Positions 31,906-55,968 of a stretch of 64,000 nt of DNA are shown piece after piece. Positions within the stretch are counted from its first letter, which is position 1, and each line of letters opens with the position of its first letter. The stretch is from the IMG/VR virus record IMGVR_UViG_3300046464_000709, positions 32,001-96,000 of that record. One strand, given 5' to 3'. This DNA comes from a virus. The notes under the pieces are model-generated. The model was not told where the DNA came from, ran no database searches, and saw nothing but the letters and a program-made list of their open reading frames with translations. The position numbers and the translations under genes were made by a program.

Positions 31906-32067
31906 TTACATTCTTGCCGTTCGTTTGACCAATGCAATTGTATAAGGTGAATGTTCAGTCGCTCGATCAAGATTTGATTCAAGGTTGCGAATGGCATTTA
32001 CAATATAATCGAGTGTGCCCACAATTCCGGCGGACTCTCCGTTTTTAAGTATTTGGTAACTAATCAT
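31906..32067 (-). CDS. 53-aa hypothetical protein (not in ORF track)
   Basis: MISYQILKNGESAGIVG...; overlaps the stop of the upstream gene. Confidence 0.55.
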   Translation of the reverse strand: MISYQILKNGESAGIVGTLDYIVNAIRNLESNLDRATEHSPYTIALVKRTARM

Positions 32068-32612: not shown

Positions 32613-32855
32613 TTAGTTGCGATAATGAGACGAGTCTTGTGATTCAGTGAGAGTTTCATAAGCGTGTGCTTTCTGAGCAATGCACTTTAAGGCACTGCCA
32701 ACTACATTCAACATTGAAAGTTGACCATTGTCAAGCATATTCTTGTCGGTCATTGGCTCAATCATGTTGTCGTGAATGAATGCCATCACTAATTCGTTTG
32801 CTTCGAGCGAGTCAATATCTTGGACTTGCAAGTGGTTTGGGTCGTTAAGGTACAT
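32613..32855 (-). CDS. hypothetical protein
   Basis: 80 aa, packed in operon. Confidence 0.65.
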   Translation of the reverse strand: MYLNDPNHLQVQDIDSLEANELVMAFIHDNMIEPMTDKNMLDNGQLSMLNVVGSALKCIAQKAHAYETLTESQDSSHYRN

Positions 32856-32970
32856 AAGTCAGTTTGGTTTTGTGTTTTAGTTTCCTATCAAGGATTTTGT
32901 TTTTCATCTTGAAAGGTCGAGCCTTAGTGAAAAGGATTTGATGTCTGAGCTTTATCTTTTTCGCCTTCAT
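32845..32970 (-). CDS. small basic protein
   Basis: MKAKKIKLRHQ...; ATG 7 nt after TTGACT-16-CATACT. Confidence 0.55.
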   Translation of the reverse strand: MKAKKIKLRHQILFTKARPFKMKNKILDRKLKHKTKLTYVP

Positions 32971-33033
32971 AAGTATTAGTATGACAGAATTTTTTGTGAA
33001 GTCAAGCGTTTTTTTGGTGAATAATAAAATGAT

Positions 33034-33135
33034 ACCAAACACGGAGGGAGTCGAACCCACAAGAGTATAATTAGGACTGCAATCCGCACCTCTCTTAATC
33101 ACCACTAATTTGCAGATTAGTTTGATCGTGTTGGT
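33034..33135 (-). ncRNA. tRNA-like small RNA with complementary loops
   Basis: Closing stem ACCAACACG/CGTGTTTGGT, T-arm GTGGG-TTCGACT-CCCTC, loops CTGCAA and TTGCAG; begins 7 nt after TTGACT-16-CATACT. Confidence 0.65.
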
Positions 33136-33201
33136 AAGTATTAGTATGTCAGAATCTCAAGCTAAGTCAACCCCTAAATGCAAAAAAAATAAAAATAGTT
33201 G

Positions 33202-33278
33202 TAAGCTCTTGATGCTCAATGACTTGCGCGAAACCGCCCAGGGCTTTTTGCCCTAACTAGTTCATAACCAACAGTTTA
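33202..33278. repeat. double-dyad element 5
   Basis: Dyads at 33202 and 33254. Confidence 0.85.
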
Positions 33279-33522
33279 TGACATCTGCATAAATACATAA
33301 TAAAATATATGCACTAAAGGTTAATAAAATTGATGTAAATAATAATGCTTTAATCATTTTAATATCCTAACCATTCCAATACTTTTTGTGCATTATACTC
33401 TTCTTTGTCGCCCATGTCCAAAATAAATTGATGAATATCTTGGCAACCATGTTTTGAGAGTTCCTCAAACGCTCTTGTTTGGCTAATCATTAAATCTTCG
33501 GCTGAATCGTAATATGTTTCAC

Positions 33523-34266
33523 TCATGAGTTTATCCCTTCCTTTACAAATCCTGTACTATCCTTTTTTGCCATGCCTTTCTCGATAAGACCAACGACCAC
33601 ACCTTGCTTGTCTAAAAAGCGAAGGTCATTATCATCACCATTAACAACCTCAAAACCTTTCCATGTCTTGGGTAATTGATTGCGAAATACAACGGCAACA
33701 TTGCCACCCATTGAAAGAACCATCTCGCATTTTGTATCGTTTGTTTCCGAGCGACTAAAAGTCAAGTGGTAATTAGAGGGAAACTTTGCCTCGCCCTTAA
33801 TAAAAGGCTTGTCGAGAAAAGAACACATTCTTTTAAATGATTTCGTATAATCATAAAACTGAACATCCGAAAATTTATCAAAGATTGACTTTGGCTGATC
33901 TTCGTTAAAGAAAACAGATTCCCACATAACATCGCTTGTGAGATTGAGCCGAAAGACTGACTTCATCCCTTTCTTTGTTGCACTCTTAATTGAATTAGAA
34001 ATTTCTTTCGATAGCTTGGCAAGAAAATCTAATTGATGATTGAAGAATAACTTTGTCTTGGCGACACGAGATTCTTGAATAGAATTCATTTGCCCACGAC
34101 CTGCTGTATTGAGGCAAGATGCCGTGCAACCTTTTGAACGCCAACGGCAAACTTCGAAGCCTGAAAGACTTGCTGGGGCAAAGTGAATGCCTTTCGTTAT
34201 GTAACCTAATTTCTCGCCTTTGAGAATTTTTTGATTACCTGATGTGAGAAGTGTTGTCTTAATCAT
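33523..34266 (-). CDS. GP88-like phage protein (Cys-cluster)
   Basis: C..SKGCTASCL..AGRG, FRLNLTSD, FYDYTK, YHLTFSRSE, GD..DLRFLD; leaderless ATG at 34266. Confidence 0.75.
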   Translation of the reverse strand: MIKTTLLTSGNQKILKGEKLGYITKGIHFAPASLSGFEVCRWRSKGCTASCLNTAGRGQMNSIQESRVAKTKLFFNHQLDFLAKLSKEISNSIKSATKKGMKSVFRLNLTSDVMWESVFFNEDQPKSIFDKFSDVQFYDYTKSFKRMCSFLDKPFIKGEAKFPSNYHLTFSRSETNDTKCEMVLSMGGNVAVVFRNQLPKTWKGFEVVNGDDNDLRFLDKQGVVVGLIEKGMAKKDSTGFVKEGINS

Positions 34267-34339
34267 GTATTCCATTATGACAGAATAAGGTGCGAAGTCA
34301 ACCCCTAAATGCAAAAAAAGTAAAAAAAGTTTTGTTGCG

Positions 34340-34416
34340 GATGTCGTTGATACGCAAAGGCTTACGAAAAAAAGCCTAGGCCCGTTTTCCATAACTGCCT
34401 GGCCTGCAACGACTTA
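34340..34416. repeat. double-dyad element 6
   Basis: Dyads at 34340 and 34392. Confidence 0.85.
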
Positions 34417-35506: not shown

Positions 35507-35704
35507 AATTTTTAGTGTTGGTTTATCGTCTTTGATGGGTTAATTATACGAAAGTTTTGGGGTTTTGTCAAGCTTTTTTTCTTCGATTAAGTTTTTTTTG
35601 TTTCGACTAATTTTTTTTAAGTTCAGTTATCGTCTTGATGTATACTAGTATGACAGAAAATAATGCAATGTCAACCCCTTTTTTTTATAAAGTTAAAGTT
35701 TTCG

Positions 35705-37236: not shown

Positions 37237-37635
37237 TCATAATACTGCTAATACTTGTTTGGGTTCTAATCTTACGGCAATAGCATAGTCTACCATTTGT
37301 TCCGTGTCCTTGTCAACAAAATTCTCATACTTATATGGATTGTAAGAAACAGGTCGTGCGGTGGGATGAGAATCCCTCCAATCGCCCATTTGCCAATTCT
37401 CTATATAGCCTTCGACTCCTGCGTGAACATTTTTACGCTGTTCTTTTAAAACTCTTTCTCGCCCACTCTTGCTAACCTTGAAAGTGCAACTATGCATTGC
37501 CAATAATTTAGTGTGAGCCTTGACCAATCCATCTTGCTTGATACTCCAACATTTTTTGTGAAGATTCTTGTAAACAAAAACAGGACTGCCAAAGTCAATC
37601 TTATATCTTTTTTCGTTAGGCTTTGTCTCGATCAT
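37237..37635 (-). CDS. hypothetical phage protein
   Basis: VY.NLHK.CWS..F.VS..GRERVL.E.RKNVHA..V.YNPYK; leaderless promoter. Confidence 0.8.
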   Translation of the reverse strand: MIETKPNEKRYKIDFGSPVFVYKNLHKKCWSIKQDGLVKAHTKLLAMHSCTFKVSKSGRERVLKEQRKNVHAGVEGYIENWQMGDWRDSHPTARPVSYNPYKYENFVDKDTEQMVDYAIAVRLEPKQVLAVL

Positions 37636-37737
37636 AAATACAAGTATGACAGGTTTTCACCTCAAGTCAACCTTTTTCTTCATTTTTTTCTAAACCTATT
37701 CCCAATTTATGTCGACTCTGTCGACAGGTCAAGCCGT

Positions 37738-38681: not shown

Positions 38682-38936
38682 TTATTGTGCAATGTGAAAT
38701 GCTTTACGAAGGTTGTCGCATTCTTGTCCACAAAGAAATACTTCTCTGCAATAGTCAATGTTTTTTGACTCAATATGCTTGATGAGTTTTACTGCTTGAT
38801 GAGCAGGAACTCGATCACGAGGCATGCCTCCCCATTTGATCACTACCCTCATGTGAGGAAAGTGTTCGTTGATTTCAGCAAGTTGAGCTGAGTTGATGTA
38901 TCCGTAGTTCGCAAGAATGTTTTTTATTGTTTCCAT
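38682..38936 (-). CDS. hypothetical protein
   Basis: Start reassigned to ATG 38936, 7 nt after TTGACA-16-CATACT. Confidence 0.7.
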   Translation of the reverse strand: METIKNILANYGYINSAQLAEINEHFPHMRVVIKWGGMPRDRVPAHQAVKLIKHIESKNIDYCREVFLCGQECDNLRKAFHIAQ

Positions 38937-38973
38937 GATATCTAGTATGACAGAATTAAAAGCAATGTCAAAC

Positions 38974-39015: not shown

Positions 39016-39360
39016 TCTGAATGCATGATTAAGAAATAGATGTGGGAAGGGATTACTGTATACCCTCGACTTTTCGGGATGAACATCAGTTCATTGTGTA
39101 CCTACTTTGCACTACAAATTAGACTTGGCATTCGTCATCGACTCATCCGATTGGACTCTATCGCTCCACCACAGAGAATTTGCATACCTTAGCCCGCTCA
39201 TCACAGGCTTGCTCAGTCACCCACAGGAAGGATTATAAGCCCTTCCAAATAGAATGGAACGAGTCAATGTCCGATACTCAGCTATCAACTCATTGTTCCA
39301 AAAGTGTTTAAAATGTTAAAGATCGATTATTTATTTTGATTAAGTTTGTTTCTTAATTAT
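38974..39360 (-). ncRNA. putative ~390-nt structured non-coding RNA
   Basis: Consensus promoter, no ATG at +1, GC-richer multi-hairpin body, terminator. Confidence 0.65.
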
Positions 39361-41299: not shown

Positions 41300-41440
41300 T
41301 TATTTATTTCTTAATATTTGGGCAATCAACATTAGTGTTTTATTTAAATCAGATAATTCTTTTCTTACATCATCTGTATATCCATTCGAGATAGATATTT
41401 GGTCTTTTATCTTTTGCAATTCCTTTGTTATTTCGTCCAT
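41300..41440 (-). CDS. 46-aa coiled-coil peptide (not in ORF track)
   Basis: MDEITKELQKIKDQ...; ATG 7 nt after TTGACA-17-CATACT. Confidence 0.55.
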   Translation of the reverse strand: MDEITKELQKIKDQISISNGYTDDVRKELSDLNKTLMLIAQILRNK

Positions 41441-41484
41441 GATTAATAGTATGGCAGAAAGTTTGGCGGTTGTCAAGCCTTATT

Positions 41485-50625: not shown

Positions 50626-51381
50626 TTAAACCTCTAAGCAGTAACTCCAATAGCGAGAATTTCTTCTGCCTTGAACCTTGTTCCAATACATTTCTCTTGC
50701 AACATTTGGGGAAATGCCATACTTGTTGCAACGAGCAAGCCACTCGTTTTCCATCTCCTCATAAACCTTGAGGCTACTTGCATGACCTTTCTTCAGATCG
50801 TGACCCATGAAACGCAATAAGTGAACATCCAAGCAACAAAGTTGTGCTTCTGTTGGATAACTTAATGCGAGAGCATAAGTTGTCTTTGCGTTACCTAGCC
50901 CATAAATTGTTCCAATTAAACGATTGCGACATTCTTGCCATGTCTCATCATCTTGTTTTTTGAACTGATCGGGGTTTTCACGAAACTTAGTTACCAAGTC
51001 CCACAATCCACGCTCTCTACGCTCGTACAAGCCAACCTTAGCCTTTACAATCATTTGCTTGAGCTTGTCCTTGGATAAAGTCCAAGAAAGGTCGCTCATG
51101 GCAATCTCGTAGCCTCGCACATTGCTTTCCCAAGTTGTGTGAACGCTCATAATGGCGAAGACCCAACGAGCAAACATTTCTGCATCATCTTGAGGAATGA
51201 GATTTGTCCAATACTCTTGTTCGGAATGAACTGCACCGAATTTAAGATTGGCGAAGAAACGATCCACATTTTTACGAGGATCAACTTTTGGTTGAGTCTG
51301 CTCGATACGCTCTTTAATTGGAGCGATTGAGTTCTCTAATAATAAAACTTGTTTGTTCAATGTATCTTTTGCAATGTTCAT
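50626..51381 (-). CDS. HhH-GPD superfamily DNA glycosylase-like protein 2
   Basis: FAIMSVHTTW, IYGLGNAKTTYAL, CLDVHLLRF; leaderless ATG 51381. Confidence 0.7.
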   Translation of the reverse strand: MNIAKDTLNKQVLLLENSIAPIKERIEQTQPKVDPRKNVDRFFANLKFGAVHSEQEYWTNLIPQDDAEMFARWVFAIMSVHTTWESNVRGYEIAMSDLSWTLSKDKLKQMIVKAKVGLYERRERGLWDLVTKFRENPDQFKKQDDETWQECRNRLIGTIYGLGNAKTTYALALSYPTEAQLCCLDVHLLRFMGHDLKKGHASSLKVYEEMENEWLARCNKYGISPNVAREMYWNKVQGRRNSRYWSYCLEV

Positions 51382-51468
51382 GGTTATAAGTATGACATAA
51401 TCCAAAGAAATGTCAAGAGTTTTTTTGTGTTTTAGTTTTTTTGTTTTAAGTATGTGGTATTCAGTAAT

Positions 51469-55684: not shown

Positions 55685-55909
55685 TTATTGCCGTCTTCCG
55701 TTGCCATCTAAGACATTACGCAAACAACTTGATTGACCCTTTCTTGAGGAAACCGATTTAGCTTGGTTGAAGCTATCTGCACTAGCGTACTGCACTAAAA
55801 TTGGAGTGCTTTTATCTAAATATACCATCATACCCTTGCGAGGTTGCGAGGCTAACTCTTTTTCATGCTTCTTGATTGAAGCGTTCATGTCTGCAATAAA
55901 ATCTATCAT
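55685..55909 (-). CDS. hypothetical protein
   Basis: Leaderless ATG 55909. Confidence 0.6.
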   Translation of the reverse strand: MIDFIADMNASIKKHEKELASQPRKGMMVYLDKSTPILVQYASADSFNQAKSVSSRKGQSSCLRNVLDGNGRRQ

Positions 55910-55968
55910 TCCTAAAGTATGGCACAAAAACAAAATTGTGTCAAGTCTTTTTTGAAAAAATTTGTAAG

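Follow-up and report, generated by a model that had tools for sequence, protein, structure and literature searches.

What is an RNA that keeps the T arm of a tRNA and carries, where the D and anticodon arms would be, two hairpins whose loops are complementary to each other? This question is raised by a locus in 64,000 nucleotides (nt) of viral DNA, positions 32,001 to 96,000 of the IMG/VR record IMGVR_UViG_3300046464_000709. We refer to this whole stretch as the window, and coordinates are those of the window unless a contig or accession is named. Its minus strand holds, at 33034–33135, a gene for a 102-nt RNA with its own early promoter upstream. A preliminary description made from the sequence alone had proposed a non-canonical, promoter-driven, tRNA-like RNA at this place, with neither a D arm nor an anticodon loop of seven nucleotides, and this proposal holds. 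Our analysis extends it: the RNA is a real, uncatalogued, tRNA-derived and non-decoding phage RNA of the design of RNA C of phage T4. RNA C is its closest analogue and had not been named in the preliminary description. As an overall explanation we favour, with reasonable but far from full confidence, an early, tRNA-derived, non-decoding RNA with kissing loops that acts as a tRNA look-alike.

How is this RNA built? With its predicted +1 at an A (33135), it scores 114.5 bits with R1, a covariance model of the family. All of its parts lie on the minus strand. A closing stem of nine base pairs (bp) is formed by the 5' strand ACCAACACG (33127–33135) and the 3' strand CGTGTTTGGT (33034–33043), the latter containing one bulged base. 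Arm 1 (33098–33126) consists of a 4-bp outer stem, an internal loop with a 1-nt bulge on one side and GG (33102–33103) on the other, and a 5-bp inner stem with a closing pair, on which sits the hexaloop CTGCAA (33110–33115). A linker of one base leads to arm 2 (33061–33096), in which helices of 5, 3 and 3 bp are separated by internal loops and capped by the hexaloop TTGCAG (33077–33082). The tRNA-type T arm, GTGGG-TTCGACT-CCCTC with a 5-bp stem (33044–33060), completes the molecule, whose minimum-energy fold as a lone sequence is a four-way junction. In the window the two hexaloops are exact reverse complements, as had been described, and every listed element of the closing stem, the two arms and the T arm lies where it had been placed. 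For two given hexaloops the chance of full complementarity is 1/4096.

Is this architecture shared by other phages? An exact 27-mer of the T arm and 3' stem occurs in eight IMG/VR contigs, and 57 loci were gathered around the upstream GP88-family gene (PF17338). After blastn searches, R1 was built from nine sequences. It detects the RNA in 18 of the 58 sources around GP88 (the window and 17 loci), always as one copy, and 20 of 80 loci around a conserved 55-amino-acid gene just upstream also carry it. Pattern scans added the RNA in 14 of 27 new viral loci. A metagenome pattern scan matched at least 120 stretches, and 18 were genuine among the 80 loci examined; more loop variants may exist beyond these. 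In total, 31 matches on viral and metagenome contigs reduce to 30 distinct sequences. For 13 of these rows the search placed no condition on the loops and relied on synteny together with blastn or the model (one of them, L079, also as L155). Three rows came only from a pattern with both loops fixed, and 14 from one in which eight loop bases were fixed and four were free.

These sequences argue strongly for the fold. RNAalifold on a MAFFT alignment of the nine sequences proposes 36 pairs, 18 of them with compensatory changes. When the 30 sequences are read with the loop-loop helix as a pseudoknot, 95.4% of 1223 cells are in standard pairs, against 39–46% in a control in which the 3' partners were slid by one to three columns. 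Changes on both sides are seen in 28 of 41 pairs, and none of 500 shuffles reaches the observed values. The 30-sequence alignment was fitted to the structure of the model and is therefore biased towards it; the independent MAFFT/RNAalifold result agrees. Among the 30 distinct sequences, both partners have changed in eight of the nine pairs of the closing stem (helix 1, with 98.1% of cells paired), nine of ten in arm 1 (helix 2), eight of eleven in arm 2 (helices 4–6) and two of five in the T stem (helix 7). All four arms thus covary, and so do the pairs that close the hexaloops, which are U-A, A-U or C-G in arm 1 and A-U or U-A in arm 2. Arm lengths are nearly constant. Judged by this covariation, the four-way junction fold is real.

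Smaller features vary within this frame. The bulged base of the closing stem is U, A or C among homologues and is missing in L064, L207, L213 and L266. The GG in the internal loop of arm 1, which occupies the position of the D-loop GG of tRNAs, is present in 29 of the 30 sequences. The T loop is mostly TTCGAYT, with TTAGATT in L037 and TTCAATT in L161 as deviations, and the second T-stem pair, U.U in the window, is C-G, G-U, A-U or U-A in homologues.

Do the two hexaloops pair? The first is the same in 29 of the 30 sequences (CTGCGA in L165) and the second in 28 (TCGCAG in L165, ATGCAG in L270), and CUGCAA and UUGCAG are both unchanged in 28 sequences despite widely diverged stems. Four of the six loop-loop pairs are invariant; another is AU except in one of the 30 sequences, where it is GC. 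That sequence, L165, combines CUGCGA in arm 1 with UCGCAG in arm 2, a compensated replacement of A-U by G-C for which a G-U intermediate is possible; the model had picked it up at a synteny locus, without loop constraint. The loop duplex is predicted at −6.1 kcal/mol in its common form, at −7.8 in L165 and at −5.7 in the G-U intermediate. In a simulation of three random deviations in 360 loop cells, the chance that two of them form a compensated pair was about 0.003, a rough figure that takes no account of how the rows were collected. Three viral scans, in which each of the six loop pairs was left free once, returned known members and the L165 contig and no uncompensated variant. In L165 a GCA-like loop has become GCG along with its partner loop, which suggests that complementarity matters more than identity with a Cys anticodon, and which argues against a strict mimic of the tRNA-Cys anticodon. 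The complementarity emphasised in the preliminary description is thus kept among the homologues, with a compensated change in L165, on thin variation and with a mismatch in L270.

The same design can be found in a phage that has been studied for decades. The rnaC gene of T4 ('species 1 RNA', 139 nt, NC_000866 70908–71046) lies beside rnaD and eight tRNAs. Its predicted fold (L340:1409–1547) combines a closing stem and a T arm with one long arm and one arm of 10 bp. At the tips of the latter two are closed hexaloops, TTGACG and CGTCAA, whose sequences are exactly complementary. In an alignment of 11 rnaC homologues from several Tevenvirinae genera (L340 with L341–L346, L395, L396, L373 and L374), 13 of 17 arm-stem pairs have changed on both sides, the loops are mostly constant and the loop-loop helix is 100% paired. 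The Tegunavirus isolates TG1, phiR1-RT and fHe-Yen9-01 (Yersinia phages) carry TTGATG with CATCAA, a compensated change from C-G to U-A that counts as one evolutionary event in three isolates. When R1 is run on the T4 tRNA region it gives rnaC 15.6 bits and tRNA-Leu 15.5; it scores rnaC like a T4 tRNA, and homology outside the T arm is therefore not detectable. Two unrelated families with one design, each with a double change in its loops, provide the strongest reason to think that the pairing is functional.

A blastn search with rnaC returns 748 records, mostly of enterobacterial phages. A T4-type scan of IMG/VR gave 48 stretches, nine of which were judged RNA C relatives by eye and without a model, all with the common loops; the remainder were chance matches or other tRNA-like genes. 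Separately, contigs L347, L353 and L391 have in common a conserved stretch of about 150 nt with TTGATG...CATCAA and a T arm that is unrelated to RNA C and may be another tRNA-like or tmRNA-like phage RNA. Passages in PMC3014915, PMC9697503 and PMC12685909 state the roles of RNAC and RNAD as unknown, and a passage in PMC9697503 reports T4 RNA C as a late RNA. No paper on loop-loop pairing in RNA C was found in the literature covered, which is incomplete.

Could the RNA nevertheless be a tRNA that happens to look unusual? ARAGORN reports no tRNA or tmRNA gene in the 64-kb window and makes no call at the RNA in nine homologous loci. At gathering thresholds Rfam matches the whole window only once, at a manA motif elsewhere. 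A permissive search (E ≤ 10) of 32700–33500 yields three matches with E values of 5.5–7.5, none of them relevant, and RF00005 (tRNA) does not match this region at the same threshold. In three related records (G006–G008) RF00005 matches at other places and not at the RNA. A failed or pseudogene call had been expected in the preliminary description, which named a score as tRNA-Cys(GCA) and a loss of loop complementarity in homologues as the outcomes that would speak against it; neither was seen. With ARAGORN and RF00005 negative in the window and at homologous loci, an ordinary or decayed tRNA is rejected. A tmRNA is rejected as well, since ARAGORN finds none and the sole trace in Rfam, tmRNA_permuted on the opposite strand, reaches 11.8 bits, far under the gathering score of 47.

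What the RNA retains of a tRNA is a T arm with a 5-bp stem, a conserved TTCGAYT loop and two of five pairs that covary; it has no D arm, no anticodon loop of seven nucleotides and no CCA. Its terminal stem is 9 bp long with a bulge, and the bases past it vary (A, T, C or G), which leaves no conserved discriminator. For these reasons it cannot decode. The family is absent from the catalogues searched, and no paper on it was found in a literature coverage that is incomplete and leaves out most subscription journals. As an observation on true tRNAs in this lineage, the complete, RNA-bearing 137.7-kb record G007 has one canonical tRNA only, a tRNA-Cys(GCA) at L334:1498–1572. Its anticodon loop, CTGCAAA, equals the arm 1 loop plus the next base, and the 7-mer is found in arm 1 of most homologues.

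When is the RNA made, and where does it begin? The early promoter (33143–33170, minus strand) has a −35 element TTGACT at 33165–33170, a 16-nt spacer with TG and a −10 element CATACT at 33143–33148; AATACTT is read between the −10 element and the start of the RNA (33136–33142). Promoter and positions are as previously described. The pattern TTGAC-N12-17-TGNCAYAMT has nine minus-strand matches in the window, against 0.02 expected by chance, and in seven of the nine copies an ATG begins 6–7 nt past the −10 element, so that early mRNAs of this phage appear to be leaderless. The minus-strand stretches concerned, just downstream of the promoters, are 32970–32977, 34266–34273, 37635–37642, 38936–38943, 41440–41447, 51381–51388 and 55909–55915. 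By the spacing of these ATGs behind the sibling promoters, the closing stem of the RNA would begin at its +1, A33135. One of these siblings is a second, near-identical promoter (32978–33005, minus) between the RNA and the next gene. The ATG at 32970 stands behind it exactly as the first base of the RNA stands behind its own promoter, in keeping with the shared −10 and spacer sequence that had been remarked on before.

The exact 5' and 3' ends of the RNA, including the +1 at A33135, are predicted positions. A U-rich tail, ATCATTTTATTATT..., follows the closing stem (33016–33033, minus) and is possibly a termination or 3'-end region; a U-rich tract also lies 3' of the RNA in homologues. Contigs from RNA libraries of four metatranscriptome runs cover this stretch. 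One of them, X17, spans 32904–33132 and hence almost the entire RNA, and others cover the upstream gene to 33143 or 33189. No contig bridges 33133–33142, X15 and X17 come from one study, and such contigs are blind to ends and may derive from DNA in the libraries.

A subgroup of homologues (L047, L070, L075, L077 and L165) has a leader of about 23–28 nt between promoter and stem, which hints at 5' processing to the same end as the +1 in the window. In this subgroup and in L079 a conserved CGCCTTT directly follows the closing stem. Past this tail, the leader subgroup shows a second conserved, apparently structured stretch with GTCGCAAGCGAC inside a longer inverted repeat, located at L047:5165–5260, at about 3410–3490 of L111 and at about 3488–3560 of L165. 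It gives no Rfam match at E ≤ 0.1 in L111, L123 and L124.

Which phage carries this gene? Among the products of the window are rIIA and rIIB, a large terminase and tail fibre-like proteins, as well as PhoH, UvdE, GIY-YIG endonucleases, a Clp-type ATPase and an ATP-dependent DNA ligase. The terminase is only about 24% identical to that of any cultured phage, and blastn of 2.5 kb of the window found nothing but two short matches, both unrelated. IMG/VR records that are related and judged complete measure 137–211 kb. DNA runs that contain at least 87% of sampled words are, besides possible source samples, seawater metagenomes from several studies. The source is an uncultured, large, lytic-type marine phage.

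Within this lineage the RNA gene is accessory. Three records that served as positive controls have exactly one copy each (3/3), and five complete related genomes of 184–211 kb, with GP88 67–79% identical, have none at E ≤ 1 (0/5). In loci without the RNA the flanking genes abut or another cassette occupies the site. The inserted unit is promoter plus RNA, about 165 bp, and sits in front of the promoter that belongs to the next gene. Neighbours on the downstream side vary by lineage, with at least five different ones in 13 loci, and a downstream gene of 37–41 amino acids is also found without the RNA. Neighbourhood does not reveal a partner gene: the 55-amino-acid gene occurs without the RNA in 60 of 80 loci and GP88 in 40 of 57. 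Among cellular representatives of 185,579 bacterial and archaeal species, a strict pattern found no stretch, and a looser one found 20, none of which passes the model at E ≤ 1. In the collections searched the family is confined to phages.

The same locus can hold another tRNA-like gene, which we call family B (L123:3330–3445, L124:3296–3410 and about 3292–3420 of L111). It scores 37.7–41.4 bits with RF00005 in L123 and L124, receives no ARAGORN call, and has a 47-nt insert, predicted to form two hairpins, in place of the anticodon loop. Family B and one subgroup of the marine RNA family have a common promoter type and 5' leader. Like the marine RNA, family B joins a tRNA top half to a remodelled lower half, but its sequence and its lower-half architecture are different. 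By inspection, the loops of family B show no convincing complementarity.

How might the marine RNA work? In the mechanism that we favour, a stand-alone early phage gene would be transcribed from A33135 into a non-coding RNA of about 102–110 nt. In its four-way junction, the 9-bp bulged closing stem and the T arm would retain the top half of a tRNA, with GG in the place of the D-loop GG, and two hairpins of similar length, with CUGCAA and UUGCAG as their caps, would stand in for the D and anticodon arms. These hexaloops would kiss over 6 bp, most simply within one molecule, and so lock the lower half. The look-alike would then occupy or divert a factor that recognises the shape of tRNA early in infection, for example a defence nuclease directed at tRNA, a processing enzyme or a modification enzyme, and the marine RNA would work like T4 RNA C, which has the same design.

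Not all parts of this mechanism are equally well founded. That the hexaloops pair, counting contacts within one molecule and between molecules together, appears likely. That they do so within one molecule, locking the lower half, we would put at somewhat better than an even chance. The junction is nearly without unpaired bases, and the arms are adjacent and of similar, conserved length, which makes such a contact plausible; in four-way-junction RNAs neighbouring arms can lie side by side. The suggestion that the RNA imitates the shape of tRNA and so engages, early in infection, a host factor that recognises tRNAs is tentative. It draws on the position of the gene among early, variable, dispensable genes and on the retention of T arm, GG and terminal helix, elements used by tRNA-binding enzymes. 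It also draws on precedent, as other phage RNAs and tRNAs counter host defences.

Several observations weigh against this picture. The folding energy of the RNA is ordinary (z = −1.12, matched by 25 of 200 shuffles), and the thermodynamics of the lone sequence is therefore no proof of anything. The pattern scans selected 17 of the 30 rows by their loops. With loops this close to invariant, the case for pairing is carried by one compensated event here and one in the T4 family, and near-invariance could equally mean that each loop is constrained for its own sequence. In L270, AUGCAG in arm 2 leaves an uncompensated A.A at the terminal loop-loop pair. The RNA-library contigs X15 and X18 extend from within the RNA into the next gene, so that its 3' end may be leaky or a product of processing, and a consensus scan found no consensus terminator downstream. 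Five complete relatives without the gene show that it is dispensable. No RNA-handling family is found among 28 window proteins scanned against Pfam. TROVE (PF05731) matches none of five related phage records, with controls matched in two genomes, and no partner protein emerges.

What else could explain complementary loops? They might pair between molecules, 'hand in hand', to form dimers or larger assemblies, as is known for the prohead RNA of phi29-like phages. The complementarity and the compensated change fit this equally well, and both loops contain the palindrome UGCA, with self-pairs predicted at −4.5 kcal/mol. The arms of T4 RNA C, about 24 bp versus 10 bp in the predicted fold, are so unequal that a contact within one molecule would be harder there and pairing between molecules may fit better. 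The arms of the marine RNA, however, have a similar and conserved length that suits side-by-side contact in one molecule, and the RNA, whose gene is dispensable and lies among early genes, has no link to packaging or assembly; we consider pairing between molecules unlikely. Less probable still is that the loops stay unpaired and that each is a sequence-specific site, for instance for a dimeric protein or for the anticodon loops of host tRNAs. This would account for twelve loop bases that are near-invariant while all stems drift. It would also fit the likeness to a CUGCAA-type tRNA-Cys anticodon loop, which loop 1 copies and loop 2 complements, and the CTGCAAA shared by the phage tRNA-Cys of a related record and arm 1 of most homologues. 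Fixed separate targets would not lead one to expect the joint change to GCG/CGC in L165, however, nor would they explain why the T4 RNA C family, with different loop sequences, shows the same complementarity and a compensated change of its own.

Two further explanations concern the tRNA-like parts more than the loops. The canonical T arm and GG, the 5-bp stem of arm 1 with CUGCAA(A) and the tip of arm 2, which resembles a Cys anticodon arm, would be explained by a decaying tRNA-Cys pseudogene or by an odd but working tRNA that is D-armless and has a long variable arm and an anticodon loop of eight or six nucleotides. Against this stand the negative ARAGORN and RF00005 searches and the 9-bp bulged stem without discriminator or CCA; decay, moreover, does not go together with 28 pairs kept through changes on both sides and with a promoter of its own, and we give this explanation very little weight. 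We give no more weight to a cis-acting leader or processing signal of the downstream gene, or a remnant of a tRNA-type phage attachment site. RNA-library contigs do extend from the 3' part of the RNA into the next open reading frame, but the next ATG is separated from the RNA by a second full promoter. At least five downstream neighbours occur in the 13 loci, and the gene of 37–41 amino acids does without the RNA. The 3' halves of tRNAs are typical of attP sites, but the family has no member in the cellular representatives, the genes are of lytic type (rIIA/rIIB, ligase, terminase), and no integrase was found among 38 window proteins scanned. An attP or tRNA fragment of a temperate phage is thus rejected. 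We return to an early tRNA look-alike with kissing loops as the explanation to be preferred.

The promoter family that drives the RNA also draws attention to other features of the window. One copy (35647–35674, minus) has ATC rather than ATG at +1, with the sequence downstream running to about 35600, and it might drive a further non-coding RNA or a leader-bearing gene. The GP88-family open reading frame (33523–34392, minus, 289 amino acids) likely has its true start at an internal ATG at 34266 (MIKTTLL...), which is the +1 of the promoter at 34274–34301 and the point at which most homologues begin. A manA RNA motif (39037–39246, minus; RF01745, 71.3 bits, E = 3.8e-16) is found a short way upstream of a further early promoter (38944–38971). 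Dyad-symmetric elements, for example around AAGTCATTGAGCATCAAGAGCTTAC, precede the promoter of the RNA (33180–33260, minus) and other early promoters, and dyad-like sequences are also found 5' of the promoter in homologous loci.

Phages carry tRNAs, and two stable RNAs of T4 have stood unexplained since the 1970s. A compact RNA on the plan of T4 RNA C is now seen in an unrelated lineage of marine phages. This offers a first structural handle on what the two have in common, a tRNA top half and a probably self-paired lower half, and it adds an uncatalogued RNA family for the annotation of marine viromes. More speculatively, the marine RNA and T4 RNA C might be sequence-unrelated members of a widespread and so far unrecognised class of phage RNAs that retain the tRNA top half and are built around a functional core of conserved hexaloops kissing over 6 bp. 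If such a class is real, the kiss might lock a tRNA decoy against tRNA-targeting immunity, or join molecules into dimers or rings. RNA C, an orphan for 50 years, would then become a tractable laboratory model for the whole class.

How does the marine RNA compare with the systems already known? With tRNA-Cys(GCA) it has in common the TTCGAnT type of T loop, GG in the place of the D-loop GG and the topology of a four-way junction, and its arm 1 loop equals the first six bases of the anticodon loop of tRNA-Cys in a related phage record. It differs from a tRNA in its hexaloops, in having no D arm and no CCA or discriminator, and in its 9-bp bulged terminal stem. The phi29-type pRNA is likewise a structured phage RNA in which two loops of one molecule are mutually complementary. 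It is an RNA of small podoviruses, serves DNA packaging, pairs its loops between molecules, varies their sequences among phages and is without a tRNA-like T arm. In contrast, the marine RNA has a T arm and nearly invariant loops, and it gives no Rfam match to pRNA at E ≤ 10. Y RNA and YrlA, with which the preliminary description had compared it, are also non-coding and carry a tRNA-like module, and passages in PMC7824862 describe some jumbo phages that encode Ro/TROVE and a tRNA-like partner. The marine RNA has no evident Ro-binding stem, and the comparison did not hold up: with no Rfam match and no TROVE protein in the five related phage records, a Y RNA that acts with Ro is rejected.

This leaves T4 RNA C, from which the marine RNA differs in several respects. 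RNA C has 139 nt as opposed to 102, its arms are very unequal and its loop sequences are others. It lies within a tRNA gene cluster, whereas the marine RNA lies among small early genes, with no tRNA in the 64-kb window, and has its own early-type promoter with the +1 at the first base of the stem. The plan of the two molecules is nonetheless the same: a closing stem, a canonical T arm and, instead of D and anticodon arms, two arms with complementary hexaloops that are conserved while the stems drift and that have undergone one compensated change in each family.

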